Shown piece after piece: positions 31,035 to 54,337 of a stretch of DNA of 64,000 nucleotides; positions within the stretch are counted from its first letter, which is position 1, and the number at the start of each line of letters is the position of its first letter. A model generated the notes under the pieces. It ran no database searches. It was not told the DNA's origin and saw nothing but the letters and a program-made list of their open reading frames with translations. The position numbers and the translations under genes were made by a program. The DNA is from Verrucomicrobiota bacterium (GTDB lineage: Bacteria > Verrucomicrobiota > Verrucomicrobiia > Limisphaerales > AAA164-E04), in NCBI GenBank assembly GCA_047947115.1, contig CP170459.1:3136001-3200000 (forward strand), read 5' to 3'.

Positions 31035-31347
31035 CTGTCGAGGGGCAAGTAGTGTCGACTGAGGAGGATTACTGCTCTGCTTAGCCAAAACGATCTCTGA
31101 TCAGCTCCCGTAAAATGAAGCTTAACCGACATCAGTGGTGACGTGTATTTTTCTCGACGCCTGCCGATCAGTTCAGGGAACCCAAATCCACTTCAAAATG
31201 AGGTTGTGCTAAAGCAATTTAACATGACGACTCACTCGTGTTTGTGGTTATCAGGGTTGATTGATTTGTGCAAATCCGGTCAGGCAATCCTTGTCCGTTT
31301 TGTGCCTGAACCAACAGGGTTATTGTTAACATTGCCACATTTTGACC

Positions 31348-37300: not shown

Positions 37301-40300
37301 CGGGAGAGCGCACGGCGACCTTGTCGTTCACCAACTCGGACGGCGATGAGAGCCCTTACAACTTTGCGTTGAAGGGGACGGGTGTGACCCCTGAGATCAA
37401 TGTGCAGGGAGGCACCCCGGCGACGGACATTGCCGACGGGGACACGGTTCCGAGCACGACGGACGACACGGATTTTGGCAATGTGCTGACCGGATCAAGC
37501 GATGCACACACCTTCACGATCCAGAACACCGGGACCGGTTCATTAACGGTGGCGACGCCGACCTTCAGTGGAACGAACTCAGGAGATTTTTCGATCACGA
37601 CCGCGCCGACGAGCCCTGTAGCGGCCAGCGGGAGCACGACCTTTGTGGTGACGTTCACGCCCGGGGGAACGGGAGAGCGCACGGCGACCTTGTCGTTCAC
37701 CAACTCGGACGGCGATGAGAGCCCTTACAACTTTGCGTTGAAGGGGACGGGTGTGACCCCTGAGATCAATGTGCAGGGAGGCACCCCGGCGACGGACATT
37801 GCCGACGGGGACACGGTTCCGAGCACGACGGACGACACGGATTTTGGCAATGTGCTGACCGGATCAAGCGATGCACACACCTTCACGATCCAGAACACCG
37901 GGACCGGTTCATTAACGGTGGCGACGCCGACCTTCAGTGGAACGAACTCAGGAGATTTTTCGATCACGACCGCGCCGACGAGCCCTGTAGCGGCCAGCGG
38001 GAGCACGACCTTTGTGGTGACGTTCACGCCCGGGGGAACGGGAGAGCGCACGGCGACCTTGTCGTTCACCAACTCGGACGGCGATGAGAGCCCTTACAAC
38101 TTTGCGTTGAAGGGGACGGGTGTGACCCCTGAGATCAATGTGCAGGGAGGCACCCCGGCGACGGACATTGCCGACGGGGACACGGTTCCGAGCACGACGG
38201 ACGACACGGATTTTGGCAATGTGCTGACCGGATCAAGCGATGCACACACCTTCACGATCCAGAACACCGGGACCGGTTCATTAACGGTGGCGACGCCGAC
38301 CTTCAGTGGAACGAACTCAGGAGATTTTTCGATCACGACCGCGCCGACGAGCCCTGTAGCGGCCAGCGGGAGCACGACCTTTGTGGTGACGTTCACGCCC
38401 GGGGGAACGGGAGAGCGCACGGCGACCTTGTCGTTCACCAACTCGGACGGCGATGAGAGCCCTTACAACTTTGCGTTGAAGGGGACGGGTGTGACCCCTG
38501 AGATCAATGTGCAGGGAGGCACCCCGGCGACGGACATTGCCGACGGGGACACGGTTCCGAGCACGACGGACGACACGGATTTTGGCAATGTGCTGACCGG
38601 ATCAAGCGATGCACACACCTTCACGATCCAGAACACCGGGACCGGTTCATTAACGGTGGCGACGCCGACCTTCAGTGGAACGAACTCAGGAGATTTTTCG
38701 ATCACGACCGCGCCGACGAGCCCTGTAGCGGCCAGCGGGAGCACGACCTTTGTGGTGATGTTCACGCCCGGAGGAACAGGAGAGCGCACGGCGACCTTGT
38801 CGTTCACCAACTCGGACGGCGATGAGAGCCCCTACAACTTTGCGTTGAAGGGGACGGGTGTGACCCCTGAGATCAATGTGCAGGGAGGCACCCCGGCGAC
38901 GGACATTGCCGACGGGGACACGGTTCCGAGCACGACGGACGACACGGATTTTGGCAATGTGCTGACCGGATCAAGCGATGCACACACCTTCACGATCCAG
39001 AACACCGGGACCGGTTCATTAACGGTGGCGACGCCGACCTTCAGTGGAACGAACTCAGGAGATTTTTCGATCACGACCGCGCCGACGAGCCCTGTAGCGG
39101 CCAGCGGGAGCACGACCTTTGTGGTGACGTTCACGCCCGGGGGAACGGGAGAGCGCACGGCGACCTTGTCGTTCACCAACTCGGACGGCGATGAGAGCCC
39201 TTACAACTTTGCGTTGAAGGGGACGGGTGTGACCCCTGAGATCAATGTGCAGGGAGGCACCCCGGCGACGGACATTGCCGACGGGGACACGGTTCCGAGC
39301 ACGACGGACGACACGGATTTTGGCAATGTGCTGACCGGATCAAGCGATGCACACACCTTCACGATCCAGAACACCGGGACCGGTTCATTAACGGTGGCGA
39401 CGCCGACCTTCAGTGGAACGAACTCAGGAGATTTTTCGATCACGACCGCGCCGACGAGCCCTGTAGCGGCCAGCGGGAGCACGACCTTTGTGGTGATGTT
39501 CACGCCCGGAGGAACAGGAGAGCGCACGGCGACCTTGTCGTTCACCAACTCGGACGGCGATGAGAGCCCCTACAACTTTGCGTTGAAGGGGACGGGTGTG
39601 ACCCCTGAGATCAATGTGCAGGGAGGCACCCCGGCGACGGACATTGCCGACGGGGACACGGTTCCGAGCACGACGGACGACACGGATTTTGGCAATGTGC
39701 TGACCGGATCAAGCGATGCACACACCTTCACGATCCAGAACGCCGGGACCGGTTCATTAACGGTGGCGACGCCGACCTTCAGTGGAACGAACTCAGGAGA
39801 TTTTTCGATCACGACCGCGCCGACGAGCCCTGTAGCGGCCAGCGGGAGCACGACCTTTGTGGTGACGTTCACGCCCGGGGGAACGGGAGAGCGCACGGCG
39901 ACCTTGTCGTTCACCAACTCGGACGGCGATGAGAGCCCTTACAACTTTGCGTTGAAGGGGACGGGTGTGACCCCTGAGATCAACCTGGTGGGCAACAGTA
40001 ACAACATTGCTGATGACACAGGTCATACGCCATCAACCACGGATGATACCGATTTTGGAAATGTAGACACAGTGGCCGGAACGGACGTCAACACCTTTAC
40101 GATCGAAAACACGGGAACCGGAACCTTGACCGTGGGCACGATCACGATCAGTGGTGCCAACGCCGCGGACTTTACCGCCGGCACCCCAACGAGCACGAGC
40201 ATTGCAGCTGGCGGAACAGCCACTTTTACTCTGACGTTTAATCCGAGTGCTGACGGCGAACGCACGGCGAGCATCTCAATTACCAGTGATGACGGAGACG

Positions 40301-43300
40301 AGAACCCATACAACTTCAATCTGAAGGGAACAGGGACTTCACCAGAGATCAACCTGGTCGGTAACAGCAACAACATCGCCGATGACACCGGTCATACGCC
40401 ATCGACGACCGATGATACCGATTTTGGCGATGTGGATACGGCAGCTGGAACGGACGTCAACACCTTCACGATTCAGAACACCGGGACGGGAACTTTGACT
40501 GTGGGAACCATCACGATCAGTGGGACCAACGCAGCGGACTTTACAGCCGGCACACCAACAAGCACGAGCATTGCTGCTGGAGGCACGGCGACCTTTACCT
40601 TGACCTTCAACCCAAGTGGTGACGGCGAACGCACGGCAAGTATTGCGATCGCCAGTGATGATGGAGATGAAAATCTATATAACTTCAATCTGAAGGGAAC
40701 AGGGACTTCACCAGAGATCAACCTGGTGGGTAACAGCAATAATATTGCAGACGATACTGGTCACACGCCATCGACTACGGATGACACCGACTTTGGGAAC
40801 GTTGATACGGCTTCTGGTACTGATGTGAATACGTTTACGATCCAGAACACTGGCACAGGCACGTTGACCGTAGGAACAATTACGATTAGTGGCACCAACG
40901 CCTCGGACTTTACCGCCGGCACCCCAACGAGCACGAGTATTGCAGCTGGCGGAACAGCCACGTTTACTCTGACGTTTAATCCGAGTGCTGACGGCGAACG
41001 CACGGCGAGCATCTCAATTGCCAGTGATGACGGAGACGAGAACCCATACAACTTCAATCTGAAGGGAACAGGAACTTCACCTGAAATCAACCTGGTGGGT
41101 AACAGCAACAACATCGCCGATGACACCGGTCATACGCCATCGACGACCGATGATACCGATTTTGGCGATGTGGATACGGCAGCTGGAACGGACGTCAACA
41201 CCTTCACGATTCAGAACACCGGGACGGGAACTTTGACTGTGGGAACCATCACGATCAGTGGGACCAACGCAGCGGACTTTACAGCCGGCACACCAACAAG
41301 CACGAGCATTGCTGCTGGAGGCACGGCGACCTTTACCTTGACCTTCAACCCAAGTGGTGACGGCGAACGCACGGCAAGTATTGCGATCGCCAGTGATGAT
41401 GGCGACGAGAACCCGTACAACTTCAACCTGAAAGGAACGGGGACTTCACCTGAGATCAACCTGGTGGGTAACAGCAACAACATTGCTGATGACACAGGTC
41501 ACACGCCATCGACGACCGATGATACCGATTTTGGCAATGTGGACACGGCAGCTGGAACGGACGTCAACACCTTCACGATTCAGAACACCGGGACGGGAAC
41601 TTTGACTGTGGGAACCATCACGATCAGTGGAACCAACGCAGCGGACTTTACAGCCGGCACACCAACAAGCACGAGTATTGCAGCTGGCGGAACAGCAACG
41701 TTTACTCTGACGTTTAATCCGAGTGCTGACGGCGAACGCACGGCGAACATCTCAATTGCCAGTGATGACGGAGACGAGAACCCATACAACTTCAACCTGA
41801 AGGGAACAGGAACTTCACCTGAGATCAACCTGGTGGGTAACAGCAACAACATCGCCGATGACACCGGTCATACGCCATCGACGACCGATGATACCGATTT
41901 TGGCGATGTGGATACGGCATCTGGAACGGACGTCAACACCTTTACGATTCAGAACACCGGGACGGGAACTTTGACTGTGGGAACCATCACGATCAGTGGA
42001 ACCAACGCAGCGGACTTTACAGCCGGCACCCCAACAAGCACGAGTATTGCAGCTGGCGGAACAGCAACGTTTACTCTGACGTTTAATCCGAGTGCTGACG
42101 GCGAACGCACGGCGAGCATCTCAATTGCCAGTGATGACGGAGACGAGAACCCATACAACTTCAACCTGAAGGGAACAGGAACTTCACCTGAAATCAACCT
42201 GGTGGGTAACAGCAACAACATCGCCGATGACACCGGTCATACGCCATCGACGACCGATGATACCGATTTTGGCAATGTGGACACGGCAGCTGGAACGGAC
42301 GTCAACACCTTCACGATTCAGAACACCGGGACGGGAACTTTGACCGTGGGAACCATCACGATCAGTGGAACCAACGCAGCGGACTTTACAGCCGACACCC
42401 CAACAAGCACGAGCATTGCTGCTGGAGGCACGGCGACCTTTACCTTGACCTTCAACCCAAGTGGTGACGGCAAACGCACGGCAAGTATTGCGATCGCCAG
42501 TGATGATGGAGATGAAAATCCATATAACTTCAATCTGAAGGGAACAGGGACTTCACCAGAGATCAACCTGGTGGGTAACAGCAATAATATTGCAGACGAT
42601 ACTGGTCACACGCCATCGACTACGGATGACACCGACTTCGGGAACGTTGATACGGCTTCTGGCACGGATGTTAATACGTTTACGATCCAGAACACTGGCA
42701 CAGGCACGTTGACCGTAGGAACAATTGCGATTAGTGGCACCAACGCCTCGGACTTTAGTGCCGGTACCCCAACGAGCACGAGCATCGCAGCAGGCGGCAC
42801 GGCCACCTTTACACTGACCTTCAATCCAAGTGGTGACGGCGAACGCACGGCAAGTATTGCGATTGCCAGTGATGATGGAGATGAAAACCCTTACAACTTC
42901 AATCTGAAGGGAACAGGGACTTCTCCAGAAATTAATGTCCAAGGAAATGCCATCAATATCGTTGATGGTGATACAAGTCCAAATACAAATGACAATACGG
43001 ACTTTGGTAATGTATTGACAGGTTCCAGTGATGCCCATTCCTTTACCATCCTAAACGTTGGATCAGGTGATTTAACGGTGGCGACCCCTACGTTCAGCGG
43101 GACTCATGCCACAGATTTTTCCATTACAACCACACCGAGTAGTCCTGTTGGGGCTTCTTCGAATACCTCGTTTGTGGTGACGTTTACTCCAGGAGGTACT
43201 GGAGTGCGCACAGCAACATTGTCGTTTACGAATTCCGATGGTGATGAGAATCCTTATAACTTTGATCTTCAGGGAACTGGGGTAACCCCTGAAATCAATG

Positions 43301-46300
43301 TCCAAGGTAATTCCATCGACATTGTGGATGGTGATACATCGCCATCAACAGCTGACGATACGGATTTTGGTGATGTGCTGACTGGTTCGAGTGATGCTCA
43401 TACGTTTACCGTTCAGAATACCGGGACCGGCACCCTGACGGTGGTGACTCCTACCTTCAGTGGTACCCATGCTGCAGATTTTTCAATCACCACGGTTCCA
43501 AGTAGTCCAGTCGCTGCAAGTAGCGATACGACTTTTGTAGTGACCTTTACCCCCGGAGGAACCGGGACGCGCACAGCTTCGTTGTCCTTCACCAATTCTG
43601 ATGGAGATGAAAGTCCCTACGATTTTGATTTACAGGGAACAGGGGTGGTTCCGGAAATGAACGTTCAAGGAAACGGGACGGATATCGCTTCGGGTGATAC
43701 AACTCCGGCAACTTCAGATGATACTGATTTCGGAAGCGTGAATGTCAGCGGAGCAACTCAGCCCAAAACGTTCACCATTCAAAATACCGGCACAGGTATG
43801 TTGAGTATAACGGGGACACCTCTGGTAGATATCACAGGCGCTGACAAGTCACATTTTTCGGTGACAACCGATCCTTCCAACAGTGTGGTAGCAAGCGCCG
43901 ATACAACCTTTGTCGTGACTTTTGATCCGAGTTCATCCGGAACGAAAACGGCAACTATATCTATAGCGAACAGTGACTCTGACGAGAATCCCTATACTTT
44001 CACTATACAAGGTTATGGTGATGAGGCCCCGGATGCCGTCAATGACACCTATGCTACAAATGAGGATGTTGCTTTAACAGTGGCTGCAAGTGGTGTGTTG
44101 GCCAACGATAATGTCGGAGGCAATGGTGCACCCGTGGGTGGCATGGCAGCCACCAAGGTTACTGATCCTGCCAATGGTTCACTTACCTTGAACAGTGACG
44201 GAAGTTTTACATATACTCCTGCAAGCAATTATAATGGAGCGGATAGCTTTACTTATTCCATTACTGATAGTGATGGAGATTCCGACACAGCCACCGTTTC
44301 CATTACCGTAAACGGAGTCAATGATACTCCTGTTGCCACGAATGACGCTTATTCTGTTGATGAAGATACCAGTTTGACCGTCAGTGCAGCCGGTGTGTTG
44401 AGCAATGATAGTATCGGGGGAGATGGGGGAACTCTTGCTGCAACAAAGGAAACAGATCCTTCCAACGGTAGCGTGACACTCAACACTGATGGAAGCTTGG
44501 TTTATACGCCTACAGCCAATTTTAATGGGACAGATTCCTTCACTTACAGCATTGTTGATTCGGATGGTAGTAAAGCAATTGCCACTGTAACGATCACAGT
44601 CAATCCGATTGATGACAATCCTAGTGCAGTGGATGATACCTATGCGGTCAACGAAGACACGACGTTGACGGTTCCGGTTGCCACGGGTGTGCTTGACAAT
44701 GATAACATTGGAGGCGATGGCGGAACATTGGAGTCTGTGAAGATCACGGATCCAGGTAACGGCACGTTGACATTGAATACGGATGGAAGTTTTACCTATA
44801 TCCCAACAGCCAACTTCAACGGAACTGATACTTTTACATATCAGATCGAAGATGCCGATGGTGATACGGATGACGCGACTGTTACCATCACAGTCAACTC
44901 GGTGGACGATAATCCTGATGCCGTCAATGACACGTATGCCGTAAATGAAGACAATACCTTGACCGTTCCTGCTGGCACCGGAGTGTTGAACAACGATGAC
45001 ATTGGCGGAGATGGTGGGACTTTGAAATCGGTGAAGATCACCGATCCGACCAATGGCACCTTGATCCTGAACAGCGACGGCAGCCTGGCCTACACACCAA
45101 ACGCCAACTTCAACGGCACTGATACCTTTACATATTCGATCGTGGATGCGGACGGAGATACGGATGCCGCAACGGTGACAGTGACGGTGAACTCGGTTGA
45201 TGATAATCCCGATGCAGTGGACGACACCTATGCGGTGAATGAAGATAACACGTTAACGGTTGCCGTCGGCAACGGGGTTTTGAACAACGACAATATCGGT
45301 GGAGACGGCGGAACCTTGGTTGCCACGAAATTAAGTGATCCAAGCAATGGAACATTGATCTTAAACAGTGATGGCAGTCTGACCTACACGCCGAACGCCA
45401 ACTTCAACGGCACCGATACCTTTACATATTCGATCGTGGATGCGGACGGAGATACGGATACTGCAACGGTGACGGTGACGGTGAACTCTGTGGATGATGG
45501 GCCGGATGCCGTGGATGATACCTATGCGGTGGACGAAGACAATACGTTGACGGTTGCCGTCGGCACCGGGGTTTTGAACAACGACAATATCGGTGGAGAT
45601 GGCGGAACCTTGGCTGCCACAAAATCAAGTGATCCGAGCAATGGCACATTGATCCTGAACAGTGATGGCAGTCTGACCTACACGCCGAACGCCAACTTCA
45701 ACGGCACCGATGCCTTTACATATTCGATCGTGGATGTGGATGGAGATACGGATAACGCAACGGTGACCGTGACTGTCAACTCGGTTGATGATGGTCCTGA
45801 CGCGGTGGATGACCTTTATGTCATTGATGAAGATACACCATTGATCGTTCCAGCGGAGACGGGTGTTTTGAACAATGATACACTGGGAGGAGATGGGGGG
45901 GTGTTGGTCGTGGCCAGTAATACACCGCCGTCAAACGGTATACTGAGCATCAACCCGGACGGAAATTCCAGTCTGCCTAGACGCGTCATTCGTCAAGCCG
46001 TCACAGAATTGACCATTAACGTTGACGGAAGTTTTAGCTACATTCCCAATCCAGATTTTAACGGAACGGATAGTTTTACCTACACCATCACCGATGCCAA
46101 CGGCACCACGGACACGGCGACGGTCGTGATTAATGTCAACGCAGTGGATGACCAACCCGCCGCTTTGGATGATACTTATGCTGTGAACGAAGATGGCACA
46201 TTGACCGTCCCGGTAGGAACGGGAGTGCTGAACAACGACAACATAGGAGGAGATGGTGGAACCCTGACAGTGACCGGTAGCACCCAACCATCCAATGGTT

Positions 46301-49300
46301 CGCTGACATTGAATCCGGACGGAAGCTTTAGCTATGTTCCAAATCCAGATTTCAACGGAACGGATACATTCACCTATACCATCACCGATGCCAACGGCAC
46401 CGAGGACACGGCGACGGTCGTGATCAATGTCAACGCTGTGGATGACCAACCTGCCGCGGTGGATGATATTTTTGCAGTTGATGAAGATGGCACATTGACC
46501 GTCCCGGTTGGAACGGGAGTGCTGAACAACGATACCCTTGGCGGAGACGGAGGAACACTTACAGTGACCAGCAGCACCGAGCCAACAAACGGTACGCTGA
46601 CTTTGAATCCGGACGGGAGTTTCAGTTATACGCCGAATCCTGACTTTTTCGGTTCTGACAGCTTTACCTATACCATTACAGATGCCGATGGAACATCAAA
46701 TACGGCTACTGTCGTAATTGTGGTAAACAGTGTGAATGACGCGCCCAAGGCCAATGATGACGTTTTCACCATTAATGAGGACGACACTTTAAGCCTGCCT
46801 AAAGAGTCAGGTGTTCTATCCAATGATACAGCGGGTGGGGATGGTGGCCCATTGGAAATCGTGGATCATACGCAGCCCCAGAATGGAACTGTTATTTTGA
46901 CTCCCGACGGTGTCCTTATTTATATCCCCGATCCGAATTTTCATGGTTTGGAAATCTTTGAATACACCGTTCAGGATGGAGACGGGACTACCGATACCGC
47001 GATTATCACTATTGTTGTGAACGATGTGAACGATGCGCCAACGGTTGATAAGGATTTGCTACCCGAAGAGTTTGATGCCGATAACGGATTCACCTTGAAA
47101 ATCTTTGACGGAGAATCGATCAATCGTGACATTGGAAGCGCATTCAGTGATGAAGACGGCGATCCGTTGCTCTTTACCGCTGAAGGTTTGCCACCTGGTT
47201 TAATCCTTGATCCCGATACGGGGATTCTCTCCGGAGTCGTGGACAACTCGGCCAGCCGCGGTGGTGAAAACAACGATGGTCTTTACGTTGTTGTGATCAC
47301 CGTGAGCGATCAAAACGGAGGCTTGGTTGAATGGGTCATCACCATTGTGGTGGGTAATCCTGTTCCGTTAGCCAATCAGGATATTTACTTTGTGGATGAA
47401 GACTCGGCACTGAATGTTTCGGCCCCGGGTGTGCTTGAAAATGACACGGACCCTGACGGTGATACTTTGCAAGTGGTCACCATCGTCTTGCCACCTTCGC
47501 ACGGGAGCGCCGTGGTGAATCCGGATGGAAGCCTGACTTACACCCCGAACCCGAACTTCAACGGCAGCGACCTGTTGTTGTATCAAATTCAGGATGCTGA
47601 CGGAGATACTGCAGTTGCCGATGTGGTTTTGATCGTCAACCCAGTGAATGACGGGCCTGTTGCTGTGGATGATGTTTATTCGATCAATGAAGATCAGACG
47701 CTGACGGTGCCATCTGAAGGTGGATTGTTAGTCAATGACTCTGTTGGCGGGGACGGGGGACTTCTACAGGTTGTTGATTTTACACAACCGGTAAGTGGTA
47801 CGTTGATTGTGACTCCGAATGGTGAGGTGATCTATATGCCGGAGCCAAATTTCAACGGTAGCGTAGAGTTTGAATATACCTTACAGGACGGTGACGGTAC
47901 TACCGCCACGGCTCGCGTCTCCATTGCAGTGAATTCCATCAATGATGTGCCCAAATTGGACAGTGCCTTGGTGCCCGGACAATTTGATCCTGATTCCGGT
48001 TTTGTTTGGTCAATCGATGACGGAGAATCGATCAATCGTGACATCGGAAGCGCATTCAGTGATGAAGACGGCGATCCGTTGCTCTTTACCGCTGAAGGTT
48101 TGCCTCCTGGTTTAACCCTTGATCCCGATACGGGGATTCTGTCCGGAGTCGTAGACAACTCGGCCAGCCGGGGTGGCGAAAACAACGATGGTCTTTACGT
48201 TGTTGTGATCACCGTGAGCGATCAAAATGGAGGTTTGGTTGAATGGGTTATCACCATTGTGGTGGGGAATCCTGTTCCAGAAGCCAATCAGGATGTTTAT
48301 TTCTTGGATGAAGACACTTTGCTGAATGTATCGGCTTCGGGTGTTCTTGAGAATGATACGGATTCGGACGGGGACGCCTTGCAGGTCACTGCAGTGGTCT
48401 TGCCACCCAGCAATGGGGTGGCGGTATTGAACCCTGATGGAAGCCTGACTTATACCCCGAACCCTAATTTCAACGGTAGTGATTTGCTGCTGTATCAAAT
48501 TGAAGATGCAGATGGAGACACCGCTGTCGCTGCGGTGATATTGATCATCAATCCTATCGATGACGGCCCTGTTGCGGTGGATGATGTTTACGTGGTCAAT
48601 GAAGACCAGGTCCTGACTGTTCCGGATGTGAGCGGACTTCTGTCGAACGATTCAGTTGGAGGTGATGGGGGATTGTTGACCGTGGTGGATAATACCTCGA
48701 TTGCCAATGGTGTCTTGATCGTCACTGCTTCAGGGGAATTGATTTACATACCAGCCCTCAACTTTAATGGAACTGAAGTGTTCGAATACACCATCGAGGA
48801 TGCGGATGGAACCATCGATACAGCAACGGTCACTCTCATCGTCAACGAAGTAAATGATCCGCCGATGCTCCAGGCAGGGCGTTTGCCTTCCGAACTTGGT
48901 GACGGGCCTGTTTTCCAATGGAAGGTGTTGGATGGGGAATCTCTAAACTTGGACCTGGGAGGCGGGTTTGACGATGCAGATCAGGATGGTTTGCGATTCA
49001 TCGCCGAAGGATTGCCTCCGGGATTGTCCATCCATCCAGAAACTGGAGTTATCAGTGGCATCGTGCCAATCGTCGCCAGCAGCGGAGGTGATGGCAATGA
49101 AGGTGTTTATGTGGTGGTTGTCACGGTCAAGGATCAGCGAGGCGGGACAACCGAACTCGAATTGGAATTGGTCGTGGGGAATCCGTTGCCAAGCGCCGTT
49201 GATGACTCATACACAATCGACGAGGACACCTTGTTGAATATTCCAGCTCCAGGAGTTCTTGCAAACGACACGGATCCTGATGGAGATGTGCTTCGGGTGA

Positions 49301-51669
49301 CGGGCATTGTCCTTCCGGCCAGCAATGGAGAGGCAACTCTCAACCCTGATGGAAGCCTGACATACTTGCCGAATCCGGAATTCAATGGATCCGACTTCCT
49401 GATCTACCAGATGGAAGACAGTGATGGTGGAACTTCCGCGGCTGTGGTTTCGATCACCGTGATTCCGGCGAATGATCCTCCTTTGTTGGATTTGTCACTT
49501 CTGCCGGAAGAGTTCCAGACCGAACCTGTTTTGACCGTGGTCCTGGAAGATGACCAGAACGTGAGCATCGATCTTGGTGGAGCTTTCAGAGATCCAGAAT
49601 TGGACAACCTGTCCTTCCTGGTGGACAATTTGCCGCCAGGTTTGCGAATTGATCCGGAAACAGGATTGATCTCCGGCACCATTCCGCCATCGGGCAGTCA
49701 AGGTGGAACCAATGAGGATGGTATTTATCAGATCATCATTTCGGTATCCGATGGCAAGGGTGGTATTACTCCGGTAGATGTTCAGATCAGAGTCTTGAAC
49801 CCGCCTCCTGTTGCCGTTGATGATGCCTACTCGGTGAGTGAGGAATCGGTTCTGGTGGTGGACGCTCCGGGAGTGCTTGTCAATGACAGTGATCCCGACG
49901 GGGATGGAATCTCCGTATCAAGATTGCTGGTGCAACCGTCCGGGGGAGTAGCCACCATCAATAGTGATGGCAGTCTGATTTACACCCCGAATGGCGATTT
50001 CCATGGCCTTGATCAATTTGTTTATGAATTAATCGATACAAATGGTGGTACCAGTTCCGCCTTTATTTCGGTCGATGTCATCGACATCAAGGATCCACCC
50101 GTCGCCAATCCTGATTCCTATGTCCTCGGTGAGGATGTCTCAGAAACATTTTTTGATATCAAAGTCAACGATTACGATCCGGATTCAACGGAGTTGACTC
50201 CTGTTATCGTGGATGCACCTCCGGGAGGTTCCATTCGAATCGATGCCGTCGGCGATTTGTATTACACGCCGAATGACGACTTTTCCGGAACAGATATCTT
50301 CACCTACAAACTGGTGGATGAAGCCAATCAGGAATCAGCACCTGCCGAAGTGAGGGTTCGTGTTCTGGCGGGACCGAAGAACCATCTGCAGTCTCCGGAT
50401 GCACCGATTGTCATTTTCCAGAATGTCGAAGGTTTTGGTACGACATTGACTTTTTCTGCGGATAACAATCCTCCGAACCAGATCAGTGTTACGGACCCTG
50501 ACAGTGAAGAACTGACGATTACCATGTCGGTGACCAATGGTAATTTGTCCGTGGATGCAAATCCAAATCTCGTCTTTACCGACGGTGTTTTTGAAGACTC
50601 GCGTGGGATTCAGATGTTCGGACGTAAGGAACACTTGAATGAGGCGCTGGCTTCCTTGAGGTATGTTCCGGACATTGATTACCTGGGCCCGGATCGGTTG
50701 GTTATCTTCACTGAAGATGAAGGTGGACCCGGAGAATTGCCTGTCAGATTTGACGAGGATAATGACGGGTTGACCATTCTGGTTGAACTGCGTGCTCTGG
50801 CTGGCTTGCAAAGCTCTGACGTGACTTCATTACTCAGTCATTCGGCCGTTCCTATCAAGAACGTGGAACTGGTTGGGTTCGATGATAAAGTGATTGGCGG
50901 TGTGACCATCAGTACAGAGAATGGTCTGGAGGTGGCCTTTGATCCTCTACCCGGTCAAGGTGGTTTGAAACAACCCACCGAAATCGAAATTCTGGTGACT
51001 TATGAAGACGGATCGAAGGAAACCCTCAAGATTCCCGTCACGGTATTTCAGCCTGAGTTGATCGTGGTTGAGGAATTGGTGCCGACCATTTCGACATCCA
51101 GCAATTTGAATCCTCAAACAGGTTTCTTTGAGCAGGTGATTGAAATTGCCAACAACACCCCATTCGATTTTGCTGCTATTCGAATTTATATTCATGACAT
51201 GCAGCCAGACGTGAACGTCAAGTTCATGACCAAAAAGGATCTGTTTGGAACGTATGTGGAGTTTGCTGTGGACCTCAAGGAGGGCGAGAGTACCACAGTT
51301 ATTCTGGAATACTTTAGCACCACCGGTAAGGCAATCACTCCGCCGCGTCTTGAAATGTTGGTAAGGCGTTCCATTGAATCCGATCCAACCGGACCGACCG
51401 GTGAACGGCTGGAAGCAGCCTTTTCTGCGGGGGTTGGGGCCAATGGTCGCGTCAATCGATCCTACCTCAGTTTCCATTCTGAAGAAGGGTTTGTTTACTG
51501 GGTGGAATACAGTGACGACATGGTCAACTGGAAAGCAGCCTTGAATTCCATCGAAGGAACAGGTGAAATGATCCTATGGCAGGACACGGGAGCACCCAAC
51601 ACGGCTCCAATGCCTTCCGGAGATGGTCAAGGCCGAATTTATCGCATTGTCAAGCAACCATTGGAATAG
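31348..51669 (+). CDS. Giant (~6,770 aa) repetitive secreted surface protein/adhesin
   Basis: Single uninterrupted ORF with a Sec-like signal (…GLLLTSFFHVTGFA-Q), an LLEEAGH..D domain, a Calx-beta-like unit, 30 choice-of-anchor-D-like Ig repeats, ~17 tandem-95 repeats, 4 He_PIG-like domains and a C-terminal module. Confidence 0.93.
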   Translation: MIKLSNTRPFLGRSYSDACLWMGLLLTSFFHVTGFAQTSITQGHSENPDAADLLANIHSEDDLLTWQSEAILTSMTDSNKHFITCNLDLHAETKESQMITKAIQEAEGVLYDLPNRKDFASLLEMAFGNAGSEISSFETRLVMLQRELNGNGLELPLELRQGKEMEGILAAYAESSPDGSERIYVNMDWVSRLPSPRQLTSVLLEEAGHAIDRRLNGAFDSKGDEGAIFAMLLNQENLRGLDADLLNENDSMIIQIDGESVNVECASAGDVSLVFVDGYIGTMGSNPQQNNNVNRFSTLGIDRMAFSQNDSDGDGNFSLQGNDIQGTLTITADNGNKYTLAATMVWLDKSGNSIDNFGALFDDASQSTQTIVTSKGSLTLQLGDDANLDSNVSLTALTTSKTYADGSNISGSADKNNLLRALNDYLGDTVQVSTITTSDITEGDNLVYTVTLEAAAPSNAYYAYIISSTDSTVTNATFSNGVTVNTADGTILVPNGVSSFTVTYNTSDDSTVESTKTATLTAGNFAATANILDNDSAAPEINVQGGTPATDIADGDTVPSTTDDTDFGNVLTGSSDAHTFTIQNTGTGSLTVATPTFSGTNSGDFSITTAPTSPVAASGSTTFVVTFTPGGTGERTATLSFTNSDGDESPYNFALKGTGVTPEINVQGGTPATDIADGDTVPSTTDDTDFGNVLTGSSDAHTFTIQNTGTGSLTVATPTFSGTNSGDFSITTAPTSPVAASGSTTFVVTFTPGGTGERTATLSFTNSDGDESPYNFALKGTGVTPEINVQGGTPATDIADGDTVPSTTDDTDFGNVLTGSSDAHTFTIQNTGTGSLTVATPTFSGTNSGDFSITTAPTSPVAASGSTTFVVMFTPGGTGERTATLSFTNSDGDESPYNFALKGTGVTPEINVQGGTPATDIADGDTVPSTTDDTDFGNVLTGSSDAHTFTIQDTGTGSLTVATPTFSGTNSGDFSITTAPTSPVAASGSTTFVVTFTPGGTGERTATLSFTNSDGDESPYNFALKGTGVTPEINVQGGTPATDIADGDTVPSTTDDTDFGNVLTGSSDAHTFTIQNTGTGSLTVATPTFSGTNSGDFSITTAPTSPVAASGSTTFVVTFTPGGTGERTATLSFTNSDGDESPYNFALKGTGVTPEINVQGGTPATDIADGDTVPSTTDDTDFGNVLTGSSDAHTFTIQNTGTGSLTVATPTFSGTNSGDFSITTAPTSPVAASGSTTFVVTFTPGGTGERTATLSFTNSDGDESPYNFALKGTGVTPEINVQGGTPATDIADGDTVPSTTDDTDFGNVLTGSSDAHTFTIQNTGTGSLTVATPTFSGTNSGDFSITTAPTSPVAASGSTTFVVTFTPGGTGERTATLSFTNSDGDESPYNFALKGTGVTPEINVQGGTPATDIADGDTVPSTTDDTDFGNVLTGSSDAHTFTIQNTGTGSLTVATPTFSGTNSGDFSITTAPTSPVAASGSTTFVVTFTPGGTGERTATLSFTNSDGDESPYNFALKGTGVTPEINVQGGTPATDIADGDTVPSTTDDTDFGNVLTGSSDAHTFTIQNTGTGSLTVATPTFSGTNSGDFSITTAPTSPVAASGSTTFVVTFTPGGTGERTATLSFTNSDGDESPYNFALKGTGVTPEINVQGGTPATDIADGDTVPSTTDDTDFGNVLTGSSDAHTFTIQNTGTGSLTVATPTFSGTNSGDFSITTAPTSPVAASGSTTFVVMFTPGGTGERTATLSFTNSDGDESPYNFALKGTGVTPEINVQGGTPATDIADGDTVPSTTDDTDFGNVLTGSSDAHTFTIQNTGTGSLTVATPTFSGTNSGDFSITTAPTSPVAASGSTTFVVTFTPGGTGERTATLSFTNSDGDESPYNFALKGTGVTPEINVQGGTPATDIADGDTVPSTTDDTDFGNVLTGSSDAHTFTIQNTGTGSLTVATPTFSGTNSGDFSITTAPTSPVAASGSTTFVVTFTPGGTGERTATLSFTNSDGDESPYNFALKGTGVTPEINVQGGTPATDIADGDTVPSTTDDTDFGNVLTGSSDAHTFTIQNTGTGSLTVATPTFSGTNSGDFSITTAPTSPVAASGSTTFVVTFTPGGTGERTATLSFTNSDGDESPYNFALKGTGVTPEINVQGGTPATDIADGDTVPSTTDDTDFGNVLTGSSDAHTFTIQNTGTGSLTVATPTFSGTNSGDFSITTAPTSPVAASGSTTFVVTFTPGGTGERTATLSFTNSDGDESPYNFALKGTGVTPEINVQGGTPATDIADGDTVPSTTDDTDFGNVLTGSSDAHTFTIQNTGTGSLTVATPTFSGTNSGDFSITTAPTSPVAASGSTTFVVTFTPGGTGERTATLSFTNSDGDESPYNFALKGTGVTPEINVQGGTPATDIADGDTVPSTTDDTDFGNVLTGSSDAHTFTIQNTGTGSLTVATPTFSGTNSGDFSITTAPTSPVAASGSTTFVVMFTPGGTGERTATLSFTNSDGDESPYNFALKGTGVTPEINVQGGTPATDIADGDTVPSTTDDTDFGNVLTGSSDAHTFTIQNTGTGSLTVATPTFSGTNSGDFSITTAPTSPVAASGSTTFVVTFTPGGTGERTATLSFTNSDGDESPYNFALKGTGVTPEINVQGGTPATDIADGDTVPSTTDDTDFGNVLTGSSDAHTFTIQNTGTGSLTVATPTFSGTNSGDFSITTAPTSPVAASGSTTFVVMFTPGGTGERTATLSFTNSDGDESPYNFALKGTGVTPEINVQGGTPATDIADGDTVPSTTDDTDFGNVLTGSSDAHTFTIQNAGTGSLTVATPTFSGTNSGDFSITTAPTSPVAASGSTTFVVTFTPGGTGERTATLSFTNSDGDESPYNFALKGTGVTPEINLVGNSNNIADDTGHTPSTTDDTDFGNVDTVAGTDVNTFTIENTGTGTLTVGTITISGANAADFTAGTPTSTSIAAGGTATFTLTFNPSADGERTASISITSDDGDENPYNFNLKGTGTSPEINLVGNSNNIADDTGHTPSTTDDTDFGDVDTAAGTDVNTFTIQNTGTGTLTVGTITISGTNAADFTAGTPTSTSIAAGGTATFTLTFNPSGDGERTASIAIASDDGDENLYNFNLKGTGTSPEINLVGNSNNIADDTGHTPSTTDDTDFGNVDTASGTDVNTFTIQNTGTGTLTVGTITISGTNASDFTAGTPTSTSIAAGGTATFTLTFNPSADGERTASISIASDDGDENPYNFNLKGTGTSPEINLVGNSNNIADDTGHTPSTTDDTDFGDVDTAAGTDVNTFTIQNTGTGTLTVGTITISGTNAADFTAGTPTSTSIAAGGTATFTLTFNPSGDGERTASIAIASDDGDENPYNFNLKGTGTSPEINLVGNSNNIADDTGHTPSTTDDTDFGNVDTAAGTDVNTFTIQNTGTGTLTVGTITISGTNAADFTAGTPTSTSIAAGGTATFTLTFNPSADGERTANISIASDDGDENPYNFNLKGTGTSPEINLVGNSNNIADDTGHTPSTTDDTDFGDVDTASGTDVNTFTIQNTGTGTLTVGTITISGTNAADFTAGTPTSTSIAAGGTATFTLTFNPSADGERTASISIASDDGDENPYNFNLKGTGTSPEINLVGNSNNIADDTGHTPSTTDDTDFGNVDTAAGTDVNTFTIQNTGTGTLTVGTITISGTNAADFTADTPTSTSIAAGGTATFTLTFNPSGDGKRTASIAIASDDGDENPYNFNLKGTGTSPEINLVGNSNNIADDTGHTPSTTDDTDFGNVDTASGTDVNTFTIQNTGTGTLTVGTIAISGTNASDFSAGTPTSTSIAAGGTATFTLTFNPSGDGERTASIAIASDDGDENPYNFNLKGTGTSPEINVQGNAINIVDGDTSPNTNDNTDFGNVLTGSSDAHSFTILNVGSGDLTVATPTFSGTHATDFSITTTPSSPVGASSNTSFVVTFTPGGTGVRTATLSFTNSDGDENPYNFDLQGTGVTPEINVQGNSIDIVDGDTSPSTADDTDFGDVLTGSSDAHTFTVQNTGTGTLTVVTPTFSGTHAADFSITTVPSSPVAASSDTTFVVTFTPGGTGTRTASLSFTNSDGDESPYDFDLQGTGVVPEMNVQGNGTDIASGDTTPATSDDTDFGSVNVSGATQPKTFTIQNTGTGMLSITGTPLVDITGADKSHFSVTTDPSNSVVASADTTFVVTFDPSSSGTKTATISIANSDSDENPYTFTIQGYGDEAPDAVNDTYATNEDVALTVAASGVLANDNVGGNGAPVGGMAATKVTDPANGSLTLNSDGSFTYTPASNYNGADSFTYSITDSDGDSDTATVSITVNGVNDTPVATNDAYSVDEDTSLTVSAAGVLSNDSIGGDGGTLAATKETDPSNGSVTLNTDGSLVYTPTANFNGTDSFTYSIVDSDGSKAIATVTITVNPIDDNPSAVDDTYAVNEDTTLTVPVATGVLDNDNIGGDGGTLESVKITDPGNGTLTLNTDGSFTYIPTANFNGTDTFTYQIEDADGDTDDATVTITVNSVDDNPDAVNDTYAVNEDNTLTVPAGTGVLNNDDIGGDGGTLKSVKITDPTNGTLILNSDGSLAYTPNANFNGTDTFTYSIVDADGDTDAATVTVTVNSVDDNPDAVDDTYAVNEDNTLTVAVGNGVLNNDNIGGDGGTLVATKLSDPSNGTLILNSDGSLTYTPNANFNGTDTFTYSIVDADGDTDTATVTVTVNSVDDGPDAVDDTYAVDEDNTLTVAVGTGVLNNDNIGGDGGTLAATKSSDPSNGTLILNSDGSLTYTPNANFNGTDAFTYSIVDVDGDTDNATVTVTVNSVDDGPDAVDDLYVIDEDTPLIVPAETGVLNNDTLGGDGGVLVVASNTPPSNGILSINPDGNSSLPRRVIRQAVTELTINVDGSFSYIPNPDFNGTDSFTYTITDANGTTDTATVVINVNAVDDQPAALDDTYAVNEDGTLTVPVGTGVLNNDNIGGDGGTLTVTGSTQPSNGSLTLNPDGSFSYVPNPDFNGTDTFTYTITDANGTEDTATVVINVNAVDDQPAAVDDIFAVDEDGTLTVPVGTGVLNNDTLGGDGGTLTVTSSTEPTNGTLTLNPDGSFSYTPNPDFFGSDSFTYTITDADGTSNTATVVIVVNSVNDAPKANDDVFTINEDDTLSLPKESGVLSNDTAGGDGGPLEIVDHTQPQNGTVILTPDGVLIYIPDPNFHGLEIFEYTVQDGDGTTDTAIITIVVNDVNDAPTVDKDLLPEEFDADNGFTLKIFDGESINRDIGSAFSDEDGDPLLFTAEGLPPGLILDPDTGILSGVVDNSASRGGENNDGLYVVVITVSDQNGGLVEWVITIVVGNPVPLANQDIYFVDEDSALNVSAPGVLENDTDPDGDTLQVVTIVLPPSHGSAVVNPDGSLTYTPNPNFNGSDLLLYQIQDADGDTAVADVVLIVNPVNDGPVAVDDVYSINEDQTLTVPSEGGLLVNDSVGGDGGLLQVVDFTQPVSGTLIVTPNGEVIYMPEPNFNGSVEFEYTLQDGDGTTATARVSIAVNSINDVPKLDSALVPGQFDPDSGFVWSIDDGESINRDIGSAFSDEDGDPLLFTAEGLPPGLTLDPDTGILSGVVDNSASRGGENNDGLYVVVITVSDQNGGLVEWVITIVVGNPVPEANQDVYFLDEDTLLNVSASGVLENDTDSDGDALQVTAVVLPPSNGVAVLNPDGSLTYTPNPNFNGSDLLLYQIEDADGDTAVAAVILIINPIDDGPVAVDDVYVVNEDQVLTVPDVSGLLSNDSVGGDGGLLTVVDNTSIANGVLIVTASGELIYIPALNFNGTEVFEYTIEDADGTIDTATVTLIVNEVNDPPMLQAGRLPSELGDGPVFQWKVLDGESLNLDLGGGFDDADQDGLRFIAEGLPPGLSIHPETGVISGIVPIVASSGGDGNEGVYVVVVTVKDQRGGTTELELELVVGNPLPSAVDDSYTIDEDTLLNIPAPGVLANDTDPDGDVLRVTGIVLPASNGEATLNPDGSLTYLPNPEFNGSDFLIYQMEDSDGGTSAAVVSITVIPANDPPLLDLSLLPEEFQTEPVLTVVLEDDQNVSIDLGGAFRDPELDNLSFLVDNLPPGLRIDPETGLISGTIPPSGSQGGTNEDGIYQIIISVSDGKGGITPVDVQIRVLNPPPVAVDDAYSVSEESVLVVDAPGVLVNDSDPDGDGISVSRLLVQPSGGVATINSDGSLIYTPNGDFHGLDQFVYELIDTNGGTSSAFISVDVIDIKDPPVANPDSYVLGEDVSETFFDIKVNDYDPDSTELTPVIVDAPPGGSIRIDAVGDLYYTPNDDFSGTDIFTYKLVDEANQESAPAEVRVRVLAGPKNHLQSPDAPIVIFQNVEGFGTTLTFSADNNPPNQISVTDPDSEELTITMSVTNGNLSVDANPNLVFTDGVFEDSRGIQMFGRKEHLNEALASLRYVPDIDYLGPDRLVIFTEDEGGPGELPVRFDEDNDGLTILVELRALAGLQSSDVTSLLSHSAVPIKNVELVGFDDKVIGGVTISTENGLEVAFDPLPGQGGLKQPTEIEILVTYEDGSKETLKIPVTVFQPELIVVEELVPTISTSSNLNPQTGFFEQVIEIANNTPFDFAAIRIYIHDMQPDVNVKFMTKKDLFGTYVEFAVDLKEGESTTVILEYFSTTGKAITPPRLEMLVRRSIESDPTGPTGERLEAAFSAGVGANGRVNRSYLSFHSEEGFVYWVEYSDDMVNWKAALNSIEGTGEMILWQDTGAPNTAPMPSGDGQGRIYRIVKQPLE
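32962..39972 (+). repeat. 19 near-identical tandem 369-bp (123-aa) coding repeats, type A
   Basis: Unit starts cctgagatcaatgtgcagggaggc (PEINVQGG) every 369 bp; (39973-32962)/369 = 19. Confidence 0.97.
39973..42924 (+). repeat. 8 tandem 369-bp coding repeats, type B (PEINLVGNSNNIADD), synonymously diverged mosaics
   Basis: Units at 39973, 40342, 40711, 41080, 41449, 41818, 42187 and 42556. Confidence 0.95.
42925..44025 (+). repeat. Three diverged choice-of-anchor-D-like repeats
   Basis: PEINVQGNA, PEINVQGNS and PEMNVQGNG units, each with TDFG and DE.PY.F motifs. Confidence 0.85.
44026..50370 (+). repeat. ~17 tandem-95/cadherin-like Ig repeats interspersed with 4 He_PIG-like domains
   Basis: Recurring P.A.DD.Y...ED...GVL.ND...DGS..Y.P..NFNG.D.F.Y, plus four (G/N)LPPGL.(L/I)(D/H)P.TG.(L/I)SG domains. 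Confidence 0.88.
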
Positions 51670-51673
51670 GCTC

Positions 51674-52921
51674 ATGAGTCGCAATATATCAAGATATAAA
51701 CGCATAACGCCCGTCTCACTGATGATGGCTGCTGCCGGTTCGTTGAGTGCACAAGAGATTCCTCAACCATTCGTGGTCAACGAAAGCCTGCTGGCCCTCA
51801 CACACGTGGAGCAAGCCATCATGCTCGCGCAGAATGATGCTATGGGGCAGAGTGATGTCATGGCCAGTGGTAATATCGTTGAGTCGAATACCATCTCGGA
51901 GGATGTTTCGAACATGGGTATTGTGGAACCGGAAAAGGATCGCAAATCCCGCATTGGAGCAGGTTTTTCCCTCTTGACCAATGTGAAAGCCTCCATCGGT
52001 TCGCTGTCGATATTCACCGCAAACAGTGGGCCCGCCACGGGCAGCACGGTGAATCGCGATTATCTGGATGGGTTTGTCTATCTGGATTCGTCAGACAATC
52101 TCGGTGACTTGCGGGTGCCATTTCGCACACACAATTTTGGGTTTGTAAGCAGGGGGCAAGTGCACCCTGCAGCGGGGGCAGGCACCATTGATTTTCACGA
52201 TGTCCGCCTGGATGGGGGAAGTTATGCGTCACCTGAAAAATCCGGTTTTGCTCCTGGATTTGAAGTGCATTACAGCCACCGGCTTAAACGCACTGACAAG
52301 TGGAAATATGAACTGGAACTTGGACTTGGAATTCAGGATTTTGATTTTGATATCAAAGACAAGCCAGCCGATTTCCAGGTTCTGACAGACTCCTATCAAC
52401 TGGGTGGTGTGGACCCAACAGTGTTCGGAGTTCCCTATACGGGAAGTTTCTTCCCGAAACCCACTGGATCACCGAAAATCGGATCGACTCCCACGCGCAC
52501 GTTCGGAGCGGCAACAGGTACCATTGCCGGAGGAGCGGAAATCGAATCCTATGCCATCATCGGTCGATTGGGCCCAGGTGCACGTTATGATGCGACCGAG
52601 AAACTGGATCTTACCATGATGGGAGGCTTGACCCTGGCTTACATGCATGCCGATGTCACTTACGATGAATTGCAGACACTCAACCTTTCTGGTTCCAGTT
52701 TGACTTTCAATCAAGCCGGGGCGTTTAGTGAATCCGGGACCTTCTGGGGGTTCTTCGCTGCAGCTCGGGCCACCTATGACCTGAGTGAACGGCTCGGTGT
52801 TTACGGTGAAGCGCGTTACTTGCACTTGGAATCCTTCGACCTGAGCGATGGCGTACGCACTGTGGAACTGGACTTCGGAAGTGCCCTCGGTTTTCTGGTT
52901 GGTGTGACCTACGATTTCTGA
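51674..52921 (+). CDS. Putative outer-membrane beta-barrel protein with long loops
   Basis: Signal peptide (…MAAAGSLSA-QE); alternating amphipathic strands (GFEVHYSH, YELELGLG, FFAAARATYD, GVYGEARY); C-terminal GVTYDF Bam signal; starts 4 nt after the giant gene's stop. Confidence 0.82.
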   Translation: MSRNISRYKRITPVSLMMAAAGSLSAQEIPQPFVVNESLLALTHVEQAIMLAQNDAMGQSDVMASGNIVESNTISEDVSNMGIVEPEKDRKSRIGAGFSLLTNVKASIGSLSIFTANSGPATGSTVNRDYLDGFVYLDSSDNLGDLRVPFRTHNFGFVSRGQVHPAAGAGTIDFHDVRLDGGSYASPEKSGFAPGFEVHYSHRLKRTDKWKYELELGLGIQDFDFDIKDKPADFQVLTDSYQLGGVDPTVFGVPYTGSFFPKPTGSPKIGSTPTRTFGAATGTIAGGAEIESYAIIGRLGPGARYDATEKLDLTMMGGLTLAYMHADVTYDELQTLNLSGSSLTFNQAGAFSESGTFWGFFAAARATYDLSERLGVYGEARYLHLESFDLSDGVRTVELDFGSALGFLVGVTYDF

Positions 52922-52945
52922 TGCGGTTCTCCTAAAAGATCTGGA

Positions 52946-54337
52946 TCAAAGCTTATTGCGTAGTTCAGAAAAAACATTTCCTGAAGGCCCTTCAGGAAGG
53001 GAAGATTGCCATTGTTTCAACTCGGCTGCCAAACTGGTTGCGACTGTTGCTTGCTTTTTTAGCAGGTTGTTTTTCTCATAGGGATCCTTCGATATGTCGT
53101 AGAGTTCCATGTAATCCAGATCCCGGTTGGCAACCAGTTTCCAATGATGATGCACGATCGCCCAGGAAACCCAGTGATGAGGTCGGGTTTTATTGGCCGG
53201 CCATGTAGAAGGAAACTTCCAGAACAGTGGTTTGGGTCGGGAGAGCAGGGGAGATCCTTGGAGTACCTGGGTGATATCGACGCCATCTGGTTGGTAGGTT
53301 TCCGGCATGGCAGTTCCGCTGATGGAGCAAAATGTTGGCAGCAGGTCAACGGCTGAAAACAATGATTGATCGTCCACTTTCCTTGCGCTGATTTTTCCTG
53401 GCCATCGCGCAATGAAAGGAACCCCGATGCCGCCTTCAAAAAGGGATGATTTATACCCTTTGCGGCCTCCGGTGATTCCTTTGGAGGCTGCGATTCCCCA
53501 TCCGGCGCCGGTGGCTGTGTCGTATTGCAGTTTGAGTTCCGTCGGTCCGGTTGATCGCGCTGGTCCGTTGTCGGATGTGAAAATGACCAATGTGTTGTCT
53601 GCAATATTCAATGTATCCAGCGCATTCAGTATCTCTCCGATCCGGTCATCCGCGTGTGACAGGACCGATGCGTAGATGCGATCCGTTTCACTTTCCATAT
53701 GACGGAACCTCCATTCGTATTTTGGAACCGTGTGGAAGGGGGTGTGGGGTTCGTGAATCCAGAGGTTGATATAGAAAGGTTTGTTTTCTGCAACTGCTTT
53801 CTGGATGAAGGAGACGGCATGCTTGGAATCTTCATGCACCGGCATCTGTTCTCCCGCACAATTGAATGCGCCATAGTCATCGTAACCATAGGCACTTGGT
53901 AAGGGGGAGTCCGGAATCATGTCATTCGCCAAGTGCCATTTGCCGTAGTGTGCGGTGGCGTACCCGGCCTGCTTCAGCATGCGGGGCAATGTCGGCGCAT
54001 TGGTATCCAACCAGTCGGGCATGTTTCTTTTGGCATTGCTGGGCACCCAGGCAAAGTGCCCGTCGATGTTGTAACGCGCCGGAAAGTGTCCGGTCATGAT
54101 GGCCGTGCGACTGGGGGAACACACTCCGCTGGCAACAGTGAAACGATGGAAATCGGTACCTTCACGCGCCAGGCGGTCGATGTTGGGCGTTTTGACATAA
54201 GGATGTCCATGACAGCTCAAATCTCCCCAACCCCAGTCATCCGCCAGGATGAACAGTATGTTGGGGCGGGGCGATGTCTCACTGTTTAACGTTCCGATCA
54301 GGACAATGAGGAAAACGAAAAGATGATGCAGTTTCAT
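52946..54337 (-). CDS. Formylglycine-dependent sulfatase (S1), exported
   Basis: RPNILFILADD, CSPSR, GKWHL, TSDNG, LFEGG. Confidence 0.95.
   Translation of the reverse strand: MKLHHLFVFLIVLIGTLNSETSPRPNILFILADDWGWGDLSCHGHPYVKTPNIDRLAREGTDFHRFTVASGVCSPSRTAIMTGHFPARYNIDGHFAWVPSNAKRNMPDWLDTNAPTLPRMLKQAGYATAHYGKWHLANDMIPDSPLPSAYGYDDYGAFNCAGEQMPVHEDSKHAVSFIQKAVAENKPFYINLWIHEPHTPFHTVPKYEWRFRHMESETDRIYASVLSHADDRIGEILNALDTLNIADNTLVIFTSDNGPARSTGPTELKLQYDTATGAGWGIAASKGITGGRKGYKSSLFEGGIGVPFIARWPGKISARKVDDQSLFSAVDLLPTFCSISGTAMPETYQPDGVDITQVLQGSPLLSRPKPLFWKFPSTWPANKTRPHHWVSWAIVHHHWKLVANRDLDYMELYDISKDPYEKNNLLKKQATVATSLAAELKQWQSSLPEGPSGNVFSELRNKL

Follow-up and report, generated by a model that had tools for sequence, protein, structure and literature searches.

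A giant adhesin-like protein and an adjacent predicted eight-stranded barrel: a likely undescribed way of anchoring surface proteins in Verrucomicrobiota

How does a bacterium export and hold on its surface a protein of almost seven thousand residues? The question is raised by a stretch of 64,000 nucleotides from a Verrucomicrobiota bacterium (assembly GCA_047947115.1, contig CP170459.1, positions 3,136,001 to 3,200,000 of the forward strand; hereafter the window), in which an open reading frame (ORF) for a giant adhesin-like protein is followed almost immediately by the gene of an outer-membrane beta-barrel. The initial annotation had read the C-terminal tail of the giant protein as a sorting signal and the barrel as a dedicated translocator, receptor or anchor. 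The answer that we hold to be probable is that the barrel, predicted to be eight-stranded, anchors the giant protein through a tail of two domains, export being probably carried out by a type II secretion system (T2SS). The features of the locus are as follows.

31342..51669, plus strand: giant adhesin-like cargo, 6,775 aa (ORF list, NCBIfam/Pfam domains)
31348..31455, plus strand: probable Sec signal peptide, likely cleaved from the cargo behind residue 38 (by eye from sequence)
32960..44025, plus strand: array of choice-of-anchor D / HYDIN-like immunoglobulin (Ig) repeats of about 123 aa each, start approximate (NF012200, PF22544, copy counts)
44026..50373, plus strand: Tandem-95 / Big_9 cadherin-like repeats with He_PIG domains (NF012211, 17 stretches; PF17963, 17 stretches)
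51079..51384, plus strand: tail domain A, Ig-like beta-sandwich, barrel-linked (structure model, single copy in the genome, coupling)
51103..51126, plus strand: NPQTG hairpin in domain A; the barrel loops are predicted to be contacted mainly here (interface residues 9-16, conservation)
51406..51666, plus strand: tail domain B, a general FN3-like end-domain (Y..W..RFYR) of exported proteins in the phylum, with a GPPKT-type insertion in this copy (profile match 98.4%, model)
51670..51673, plus strand: 4-nt spacer from stop to start (sequence, contigs crossing the junction)
51674..52921, plus strand: outer-membrane barrel gene, 415 aa, C-terminal Phe (ORF, Pfam, fold model)
51674..51751, plus strand: probable signal peptide of the barrel (by eye; homologues carry clearer ones)
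51950..52918, plus strand: predicted 8-stranded beta-barrel with very long outer loops (pLDDT 80.8; Z 17-18.5 to OmpA/OmpW/OprF-type barrels)
52085..52132, plus strand: loop 1 segment, predicted tail contact (complex prediction, chain 1 residues 53-68)
52403..52477, plus strand: loop 2 segments, predicted tail contact (complex prediction, chain 1 residues 159-167 and 175-183)

The gene pair and its conservation

In the genome carrying the window (G000, one contig of 6.08 Mb) the stop of the giant ORF ends at 51669 and the ATG of the barrel gene lies at 51674, so that both the 4-nt distance and the C-terminal YDF of the barrel agree with the initial annotation; the length of 6,770 aa given there for the giant protein was slightly off, since the protein counts 6,775 aa from TTG and 6,773 aa from the ATG at 31348. 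Its layout consists of the probable signal peptide, an unannotated N-terminal region, the choice-of-anchor D repeats, the tandem-95 repeats and a non-repeat tail of about 195 aa, in which the motifs quoted at the outset are present and whose domains A and B have one match each within the protein, at its C-terminus. Both signal peptides were called by eye, and the hydrophobic stretch of that of the barrel is short. A motif search of the giant protein found, as had been stated, no RTX nonapeptide (0), LPXTG or PEP motif; likewise, the Pfam/NCBIfam scan of the barrel gave no POTRA domain and no NCBIfam match, its sole Pfam match being PF13505 (27.7 bits for the full protein against a cutoff of 28.7, and 30.2 bits for the trimmed barrel). 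The barrel is single-copy in this genome. The arrangement is not an assembly artefact, because contigs of close strains from three of four public RNA-library runs span the junction without indel (X1 51261-52979, X2 51025-51702, X5 51603-53369); these contigs leave a single transcript, expression level and co-transcription unaddressed.

Tail and barrel are coupled well beyond this genome. In a search of relatives the barrel was matched in 17 of 41 genomes, G000 included, and all 11 non-self barrel loci had a tail directly upstream, one of them cut by a contig end. The order was then searched with profiles of 8 barrels and 10 tails, both in one set of 151 genomes, and a barrel was counted as paired when a tail match on its strand lay upstream of it at a distance of 1 kb or less. 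The barrel was present in 86 genomes and the tail in 90; 114 of the 136 barrel loci lay directly behind a tail and 107 of the 127 full-length tails were followed by a barrel, figures in which the best candidates per genome were scored, 29 weak tail matches lay outside the list, seven sampled genomes had supplied profile rows and kin are not independent. In a survey of 251 genomes of the phylum the barrel was matched in 49, and 9/9 full tails outside G000 (6 genomes) preceded a barrel, seven of the nine in genomes outside the class. Adjacency of tail and barrel is far beyond chance, and the coupling, supposed initially from one locus, is conserved across Verrucomicrobiota in at least two classes.

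The barrel family comprises 1,388 clusters at 50% identity (E up to 1e-10), and the neighbours of the window barrel in a protein atlas are unnamed Verrucomicrobiota clusters. Downstream of the barrel, coupled loci show by eye no conservation of a third gene. A quickly built tree of 101 barrels placed 21 of the 33 orphans in one clade, and the coupled barrels spanned its deepest branches. The loci L082-L105 (families f81 and f86) form an orphan-barrel clade with longer loops, often located downstream of a coiled-coil or TonB-like gene. At L006:1498-2550 the barrel contains an in-frame TGA while the cargo looks intact, and at L041 the barrel survives as a fragment; loss of the barrel could release the adhesin. 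Three barrel homologues, P0092, P0117 and P0133, carry a long N-terminal extension, which in P0092 and P0117 weakly matches SH3-type cell-wall-binding domains and is possibly a peptidoglycan tether like PorE or the OmpA C-domain. A locus search with the single protein P0012 gave no match.

Tail domains, barrel fold and predicted contact

The constant elements of the system are the tail and the barrel, and the cargo is exchangeable. Stop-to-stop frames with a full tail range from 233 to 15,710 aa in the order, and the Pfam content of 40 fetched cargoes consists of Ig, cadherin-like, DUF11, MBG, HYR, Calx-beta and vWA modules with few enzyme domains. The tail is terminal, as the initial annotation had it for the giant protein, lying no more than 7 residues from the C-terminus in 40/40 of these cargoes. 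An ice-binding domain was found in 6 of the 40; in these paired cargoes, L130, L132, L136, L138, L139 and L154, it is a DUF3494 domain located at the tip, which suggests that these are anchored ice adhesins. In the giant protein of the window, at least 18 nearly identical 369-nt repeats occupy positions 33328-39970, and their copy number could vary among strains or reflect assembly. Its unannotated N-terminal region contains an EExGH motif followed by a DxxGDEG motif (31954-32040); the region has no Pfam match and is reminiscent of a metal-binding-like region of other giant secreted proteins.

The tail was modelled as two beta-sandwiches (predicted local distance difference test, pLDDT, 86.4). 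Fold searches gave generic Ig/FN3 matches only (best Z 7.1), and no convincing Pfam or NCBIfam family was found among 49 tails. The two halves differ in their distribution. Domain A occurs once in G000, while the profile of domain B, after three iteration rounds, matched 67 ORFs of that genome, 60 of them at the C-terminus, and the coupled tail has in its second half a homologue of domain B (98.4% profile match). By a crude test, a hydrophobic N-terminus is present in 43 of the 50 longer domain-B ORFs as against 1,087 of 1,994 background frames. Domain B was found in 99 of the 251 phylum genomes, of which 7 have the tail-barrel pair. The initial remark that similar tails end many verrucomicrobial proteins was thus borne out by domain B, while the reading of the tail as one signal had merged two: domain A, which is linked to the barrel, and the general end-domain B. 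Because G000 has about 60 domain-B proteins and one barrel, and 99/251 genomes have domain B, the barrel cannot serve domain B in general. Domain B is not strictly terminal: about six other proteins of G000 carry it near the N-terminus, and a 3,023-aa protein encoded outside the window (G000:C1:476355-485426) has seven tandem copies at its C-terminus.

The barrel model, built on an alignment of 8 sequences (pLDDT 80.8; predicted template modelling score 0.70), shows on inspection eight strands, all of them long, the first and the third being followed by large loops. Fold comparison related it to 3dzm (Z 18.5, root-mean-square deviation (rmsd) 3.7, 166 aligned), OmpW (18.3), OmpA (17.9), OprF (17.7) and NspA (16.7); omptins and FadL, the top ranks of Foldseek, had rmsd above 23 and were set aside in favour of the VIA results. 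PF13505 was weakly matched in 8 of 41 barrel members, and at least 90% of the 41 end in Phe. OmpA-class eight-stranded barrels are devoid of a protein-sized channel, and the barrel is accordingly predicted to be too narrow to export the cargo.

Three runs of complex prediction for tail and barrel scored 0.69, 0.00 and 0.69, the best control reaching 0.01; in calibration, that mark was attained by 116 of 157 solved complexes and by 2 of 215 mismatched pairs (partner pLDDT at least 60, between-run agreement at least 0%). The closest contacts in the prediction are those of barrel residues 55-68, 160-162 and 175-183 with tail residues 79-84 and 12-16, the latter in the NPQTG hairpin; the barrel residues lie on loops that, to judge from strand order, would face the extracellular side. 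Recall of a similar solved complex by the predictor is unlikely, since no solved structure is related by sequence to tail or barrel at E<0.1. The 'receptor or anchor' options of the initial annotation gain from this prediction, and from the natural fusions described below, though as modelled proposals; the 'dedicated translocator' fared badly, given a barrel predicted to have eight strands and the ratio of domain-B proteins to barrels in G000.

Export route, natural fusions and rival explanations

The mechanism that we consider probable would proceed in several steps, and binding, location and export route are in each case predicted or inferred. Sec would carry both proteins across the inner membrane, as their signal-like N-termini suggest, and the beta-barrel assembly machinery (BAM) would insert the barrel, as its fold and C-terminal Phe suggest. 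For the subsequent passage of the cargo through the outer membrane a general machine would serve, T2SS being the most likely one and domain B a candidate general tag; this is the weakest step. Once outside, the NPQTG hairpin of domain A is predicted to dock on the barrel at loops 1 and 2, holding the stalk base-down on the surface. Adjacency and, in one lineage, fusion are observed arrangements; the former, and the latter as a cleavable polyprotein, would serve to supply the partners at about 1:1.

The T2SS is the best candidate export route for the cargo. G000 contains eight secretin loci plus GspF-like genes and two GspK matches (PF03934 profile); on inspection the operon C1:5,050,036-5,063,976 appears to encode a complete T2SS, and three or more further operons appear to encode partial ones. 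The initial annotation had held that a type I secretion system (T1SS) or T2SS elsewhere in the genome exporting the protein would speak against its proposal, and this is so in part: several T2SS operons exist, on which export may depend. In the five other pair-carrying genomes searched, GspD-like and GspF-like genes were found in 5/5, over cutoff in 2/5 and 0/5, respectively. No autotransporter barrel (PF03797, control positive) and no T1SS adaptor over cutoff (TIGR01843) was found in G000; searches of this genome for ShlB, SprA and PorP were empty, the control genomes being equally silent. Phylum-wide profiling of T2SS by PF03934 was left unused, as many matches fell in ORFs of 700-900 aa, far longer than the GspK-type genes of G000.

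Two regions of G000 outside the window may be mentioned here. On inspection, the genes of three domain-B proteins and that of one other secreted protein come directly after an apparent operon of PilM/N/O-like genes and a secretin at C1:5785517-5802517, which adjoins an exosortase-like and sugar-transferase region. At C1:5050036-5066247 the apparently complete T2SS operon is followed by a secreted protein with a C-terminus that is domain-B-like by eye and unmatched by the profile. Within the window, at 13183-13653, lies a small AbiEii/DUF6036-like nucleotidyltransferase gene.

Natural fusions join cargo, tail and barrel in a single polypeptide. A search for longer barrel homologues gave one match among 7,997 candidates, P0153, which consists, in this order, of cargo and full tail, a Pro/Ser linker, a run of glycines, a membrane helix with basic residues behind it, another signal-like segment and a complete barrel; it has no PF03797 autotransporter barrel. 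The architecture recurs in P0160 (74% over the region, the junction being common to 7/7 members) and P0161 (40% over the region); in 151 genomes of the class the fused P0160 had no match at E 1e-40 among the best 3 candidates per genome. At the DNA level, a continuous cargo-tail-GlyGly-CTERM-signal-barrel ORF is found at one locus, L208:2-3446, where the internal motif narrowly passes TIGR03501 (16.2 bits, cutoff 15.5) and the next gene encodes a rhombosortase (TIGR03902, 98.8 bits, cutoff 84), so that adjacency to rhombosortase is known from this locus. We infer that the fused form is a polyprotein cut into cargo and barrel at the inner membrane, which fits a one-to-one partnership whose members travel separately, not autotransport. 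An internal GlyGly-CTERM serving as cleavage point of a polyprotein would itself be unusual. For a GlyGly-CTERM protein of Vibrio cholerae, rhombosortase and T2SS are both required for surface display, according to PMC6219818, and PMC3237569 reports the motif in Opitutus terrae.

Several observations weigh against anchoring by the barrel after T2SS export. The 22 unpaired barrels of the order (20 fetched) comprise 7 at contig ends, 3 fragments and 12 true orphans, that is, 12 of the 136 loci, and in family f81 barrels are present in 18/20 genomes and full tails in 0/20. Among the 20 lone tails, 3 lie at contig ends and 1 stands in tandem before a paired cargo, but 16 have no barrel behind them, and in G122, G146 (one contig) and G154 a tail was found with no barrel match. 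The strict hairpin motif is present in 35 of 62 coupled tails versus 7 of 15 lone tails, the predicted interface residues separate coupled from orphan barrels no better than other positions do, and one of the three complex runs scored 0.00. Inter-chain covariation over 62 pairs (effective number 52) added no support for the predicted interface: the mean z of 0.24 at 25 predicted contacts was matched by 7 of 100 shuffled pairings, and the value of the interface block was reached by 4 of 100. A mirror-tree correlation of 0.63 (0/500 permutations) was not counted as co-evolution because shared ancestry predicts the same. With regard to export, secretins are common in the phylum, which makes the T2SS link circumstantial, only one of the eight secretin loci of G000 has profile-matched domain-B genes within 20 kb, and no GlyGly-CTERM was found in G000, the window pair included. 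Moreover, 6,775 aa is unusually large for a T2SS substrate.

The binding evidence (adjacency, complex prediction, fusions) would serve equally a barrel that acts as cognate shuttle or assembly factor, binding the tail at the exit of the secretion pore and needed for secretion or release instead of as a lasting tether. Substrates of type IX secretion (T9SS) whose C-terminal domain (CTD) belongs to type B depend in this way on cognate PorP/SprF shuttles for secretion, as PMC12618676 reports, and for 17 of the 20 lone tails the genome encodes a barrel at another place, a situation comparable to that of orphan type B CTDs with a common shuttle. A shuttle is nevertheless unlikely, as about 60 domain-B proteins of G000 manage without a barrel partner, the three genomes just named have the full tail and no barrel match, and a tether is what cargoes of the stalked adhesin type would most plainly require. 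If the pair were instead a co-inherited adhesion cassette without direct binding, the barrel itself being a surface adhesin or receptor of the Opa/Ail/Hop kind, the lack of a clear covariation signal would be accounted for, as would the retention of most conserved loop residues in orphan clades; long-loop eight-stranded barrels are known adhesins (PMC13721041). This is quite unlikely in view of a barrel placed, in two classes or more, behind a single specific kind of tail whose cargoes are otherwise unrelated, of fusions that join exactly tail and barrel, and of a complex prediction that passes while its controls stay at 0.01.

A new two-partner secretion system, in which the barrel by itself, in oligomeric form or together with BamA would act as dedicated translocator, is highly improbable. 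The two-gene layout resembles TpsA/TpsB, the fused forms are superficially autotransporter-like, and G000 offers neither an autotransporter barrel nor a T1SS adaptor over cutoff; a translocon is unlikely, however, because the barrel is predicted to be eight-stranded, a class without a protein-sized pore, and has no POTRA domain. In addition, the predicted contacts lie on the outer loops, the two membrane segments and the rhombosortase target placed between cargo and barrel in the fusions argue against threading, and tails exist without barrels. A cognate anchor, or failing that a shuttle, for adhesins that leave by a general machine remains the account that we prefer.

Comparison with known systems

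In this pair we likely have a mode of surface-protein anchoring that has not been described. No description of it was found in the literature searched, with subscription journals and supplements lying outside the search and including the available parts of PMC3482391, 10.1101/2023.11.21.568195 and PMC9957290; how Verrucomicrobiota, abundant in soils, sediments and sea, export and hold giant surface proteins likewise appears undescribed there. The pair provides a first concrete partner for a common verrucomicrobial C-terminal domain family, in a testable unit of two genes, and none of the about 1,400 barrel clusters at 50% identity is named. If the proposal is true, the docking by an OmpA-class barrel of an adhesin that is secreted separately would amount to a new mode of anchoring, the T9SS logic of signal plus cognate barrel would have arisen twice, and the pair could serve as a small tag-and-dock for surface display.

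Each of the known systems shares some traits with the pair. As in TpsA/TpsB systems and autotransporters, a large surface protein is encoded beside, or fused with, a beta-barrel, but here the barrel is far smaller, the signal is C-terminal and the fused forms have membrane segments before the barrel; no Omp85/POTRA, two-partner secretion or autotransporter domain was found by Pfam/NCBIfam in the barrel or the cargo N-terminus. With T1SS/RTX there is no agreement (0 nonapeptides; no TIGR01843 match over cutoff in G000). The over-cutoff motif and adjoining rhombosortase of the L208 fused variant recall the GlyGly-CTERM/rhombosortase system with T2SS, whereas its motif is internal, is followed by a second signal-like segment and the barrel, and is absent from the window pair. 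The predicted eight-stranded fold, signal peptide and C-terminal aromatic residue are those of the OmpA/OmpW/NspA/Opa class (PF13505), from which the barrel differs in its size of about 330 aa, in loops of about 90 and 50 residues bearing conserved motifs, and in its coupling to a self-encoded secreted partner.

The closest working analogue would be the T9SS type B CTD/PorP pair. According to PMC9143113 and PMC12618676, an adjacent cognate PorP/SprF barrel is common for type B CTD cargo and binds the CTD for surface anchorage, orphan CTDs exist, and PorP-like barrels are 14-stranded members of the FadL family (the last from PMC9143113). Both pairs have a Sec-exported adhesin-like cargo, a C-terminal beta-sandwich signal and an adjacent cognate barrel, and the split between secretion signal and targeting signal parallels domains B and A. 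In contrast, the barrel described here is predicted to have 8 strands instead of 14, and the phylum differs. Because PorP barrels are 14-stranded and no homology was found (PF11751 for PorP/SprF matched 0/41 barrels, and the T9SS CTD models of Pfam/NCBIfam 0/49 tails), the pair seems to work like the T9SS one and is no member of it. As a bolder and more doubtful conjecture, Verrucomicrobiota may own an undescribed surface-display system in which domain B would tag dozens of proteins per genome for T2SS and an added Ig domain would pass selected adhesins, as long as 15,000 aa, on to their cognate anchor, an eight-stranded barrel; such a system would have arrived by convergence, with unrelated parts, at the logic of the T9SS CTD/PorP pair, and would include a polyprotein form cut by rhombosortase and signal peptidase. 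While the parts of the pair have no precedent, its logic has one, in the CTD/PorP partnership of T9SS.

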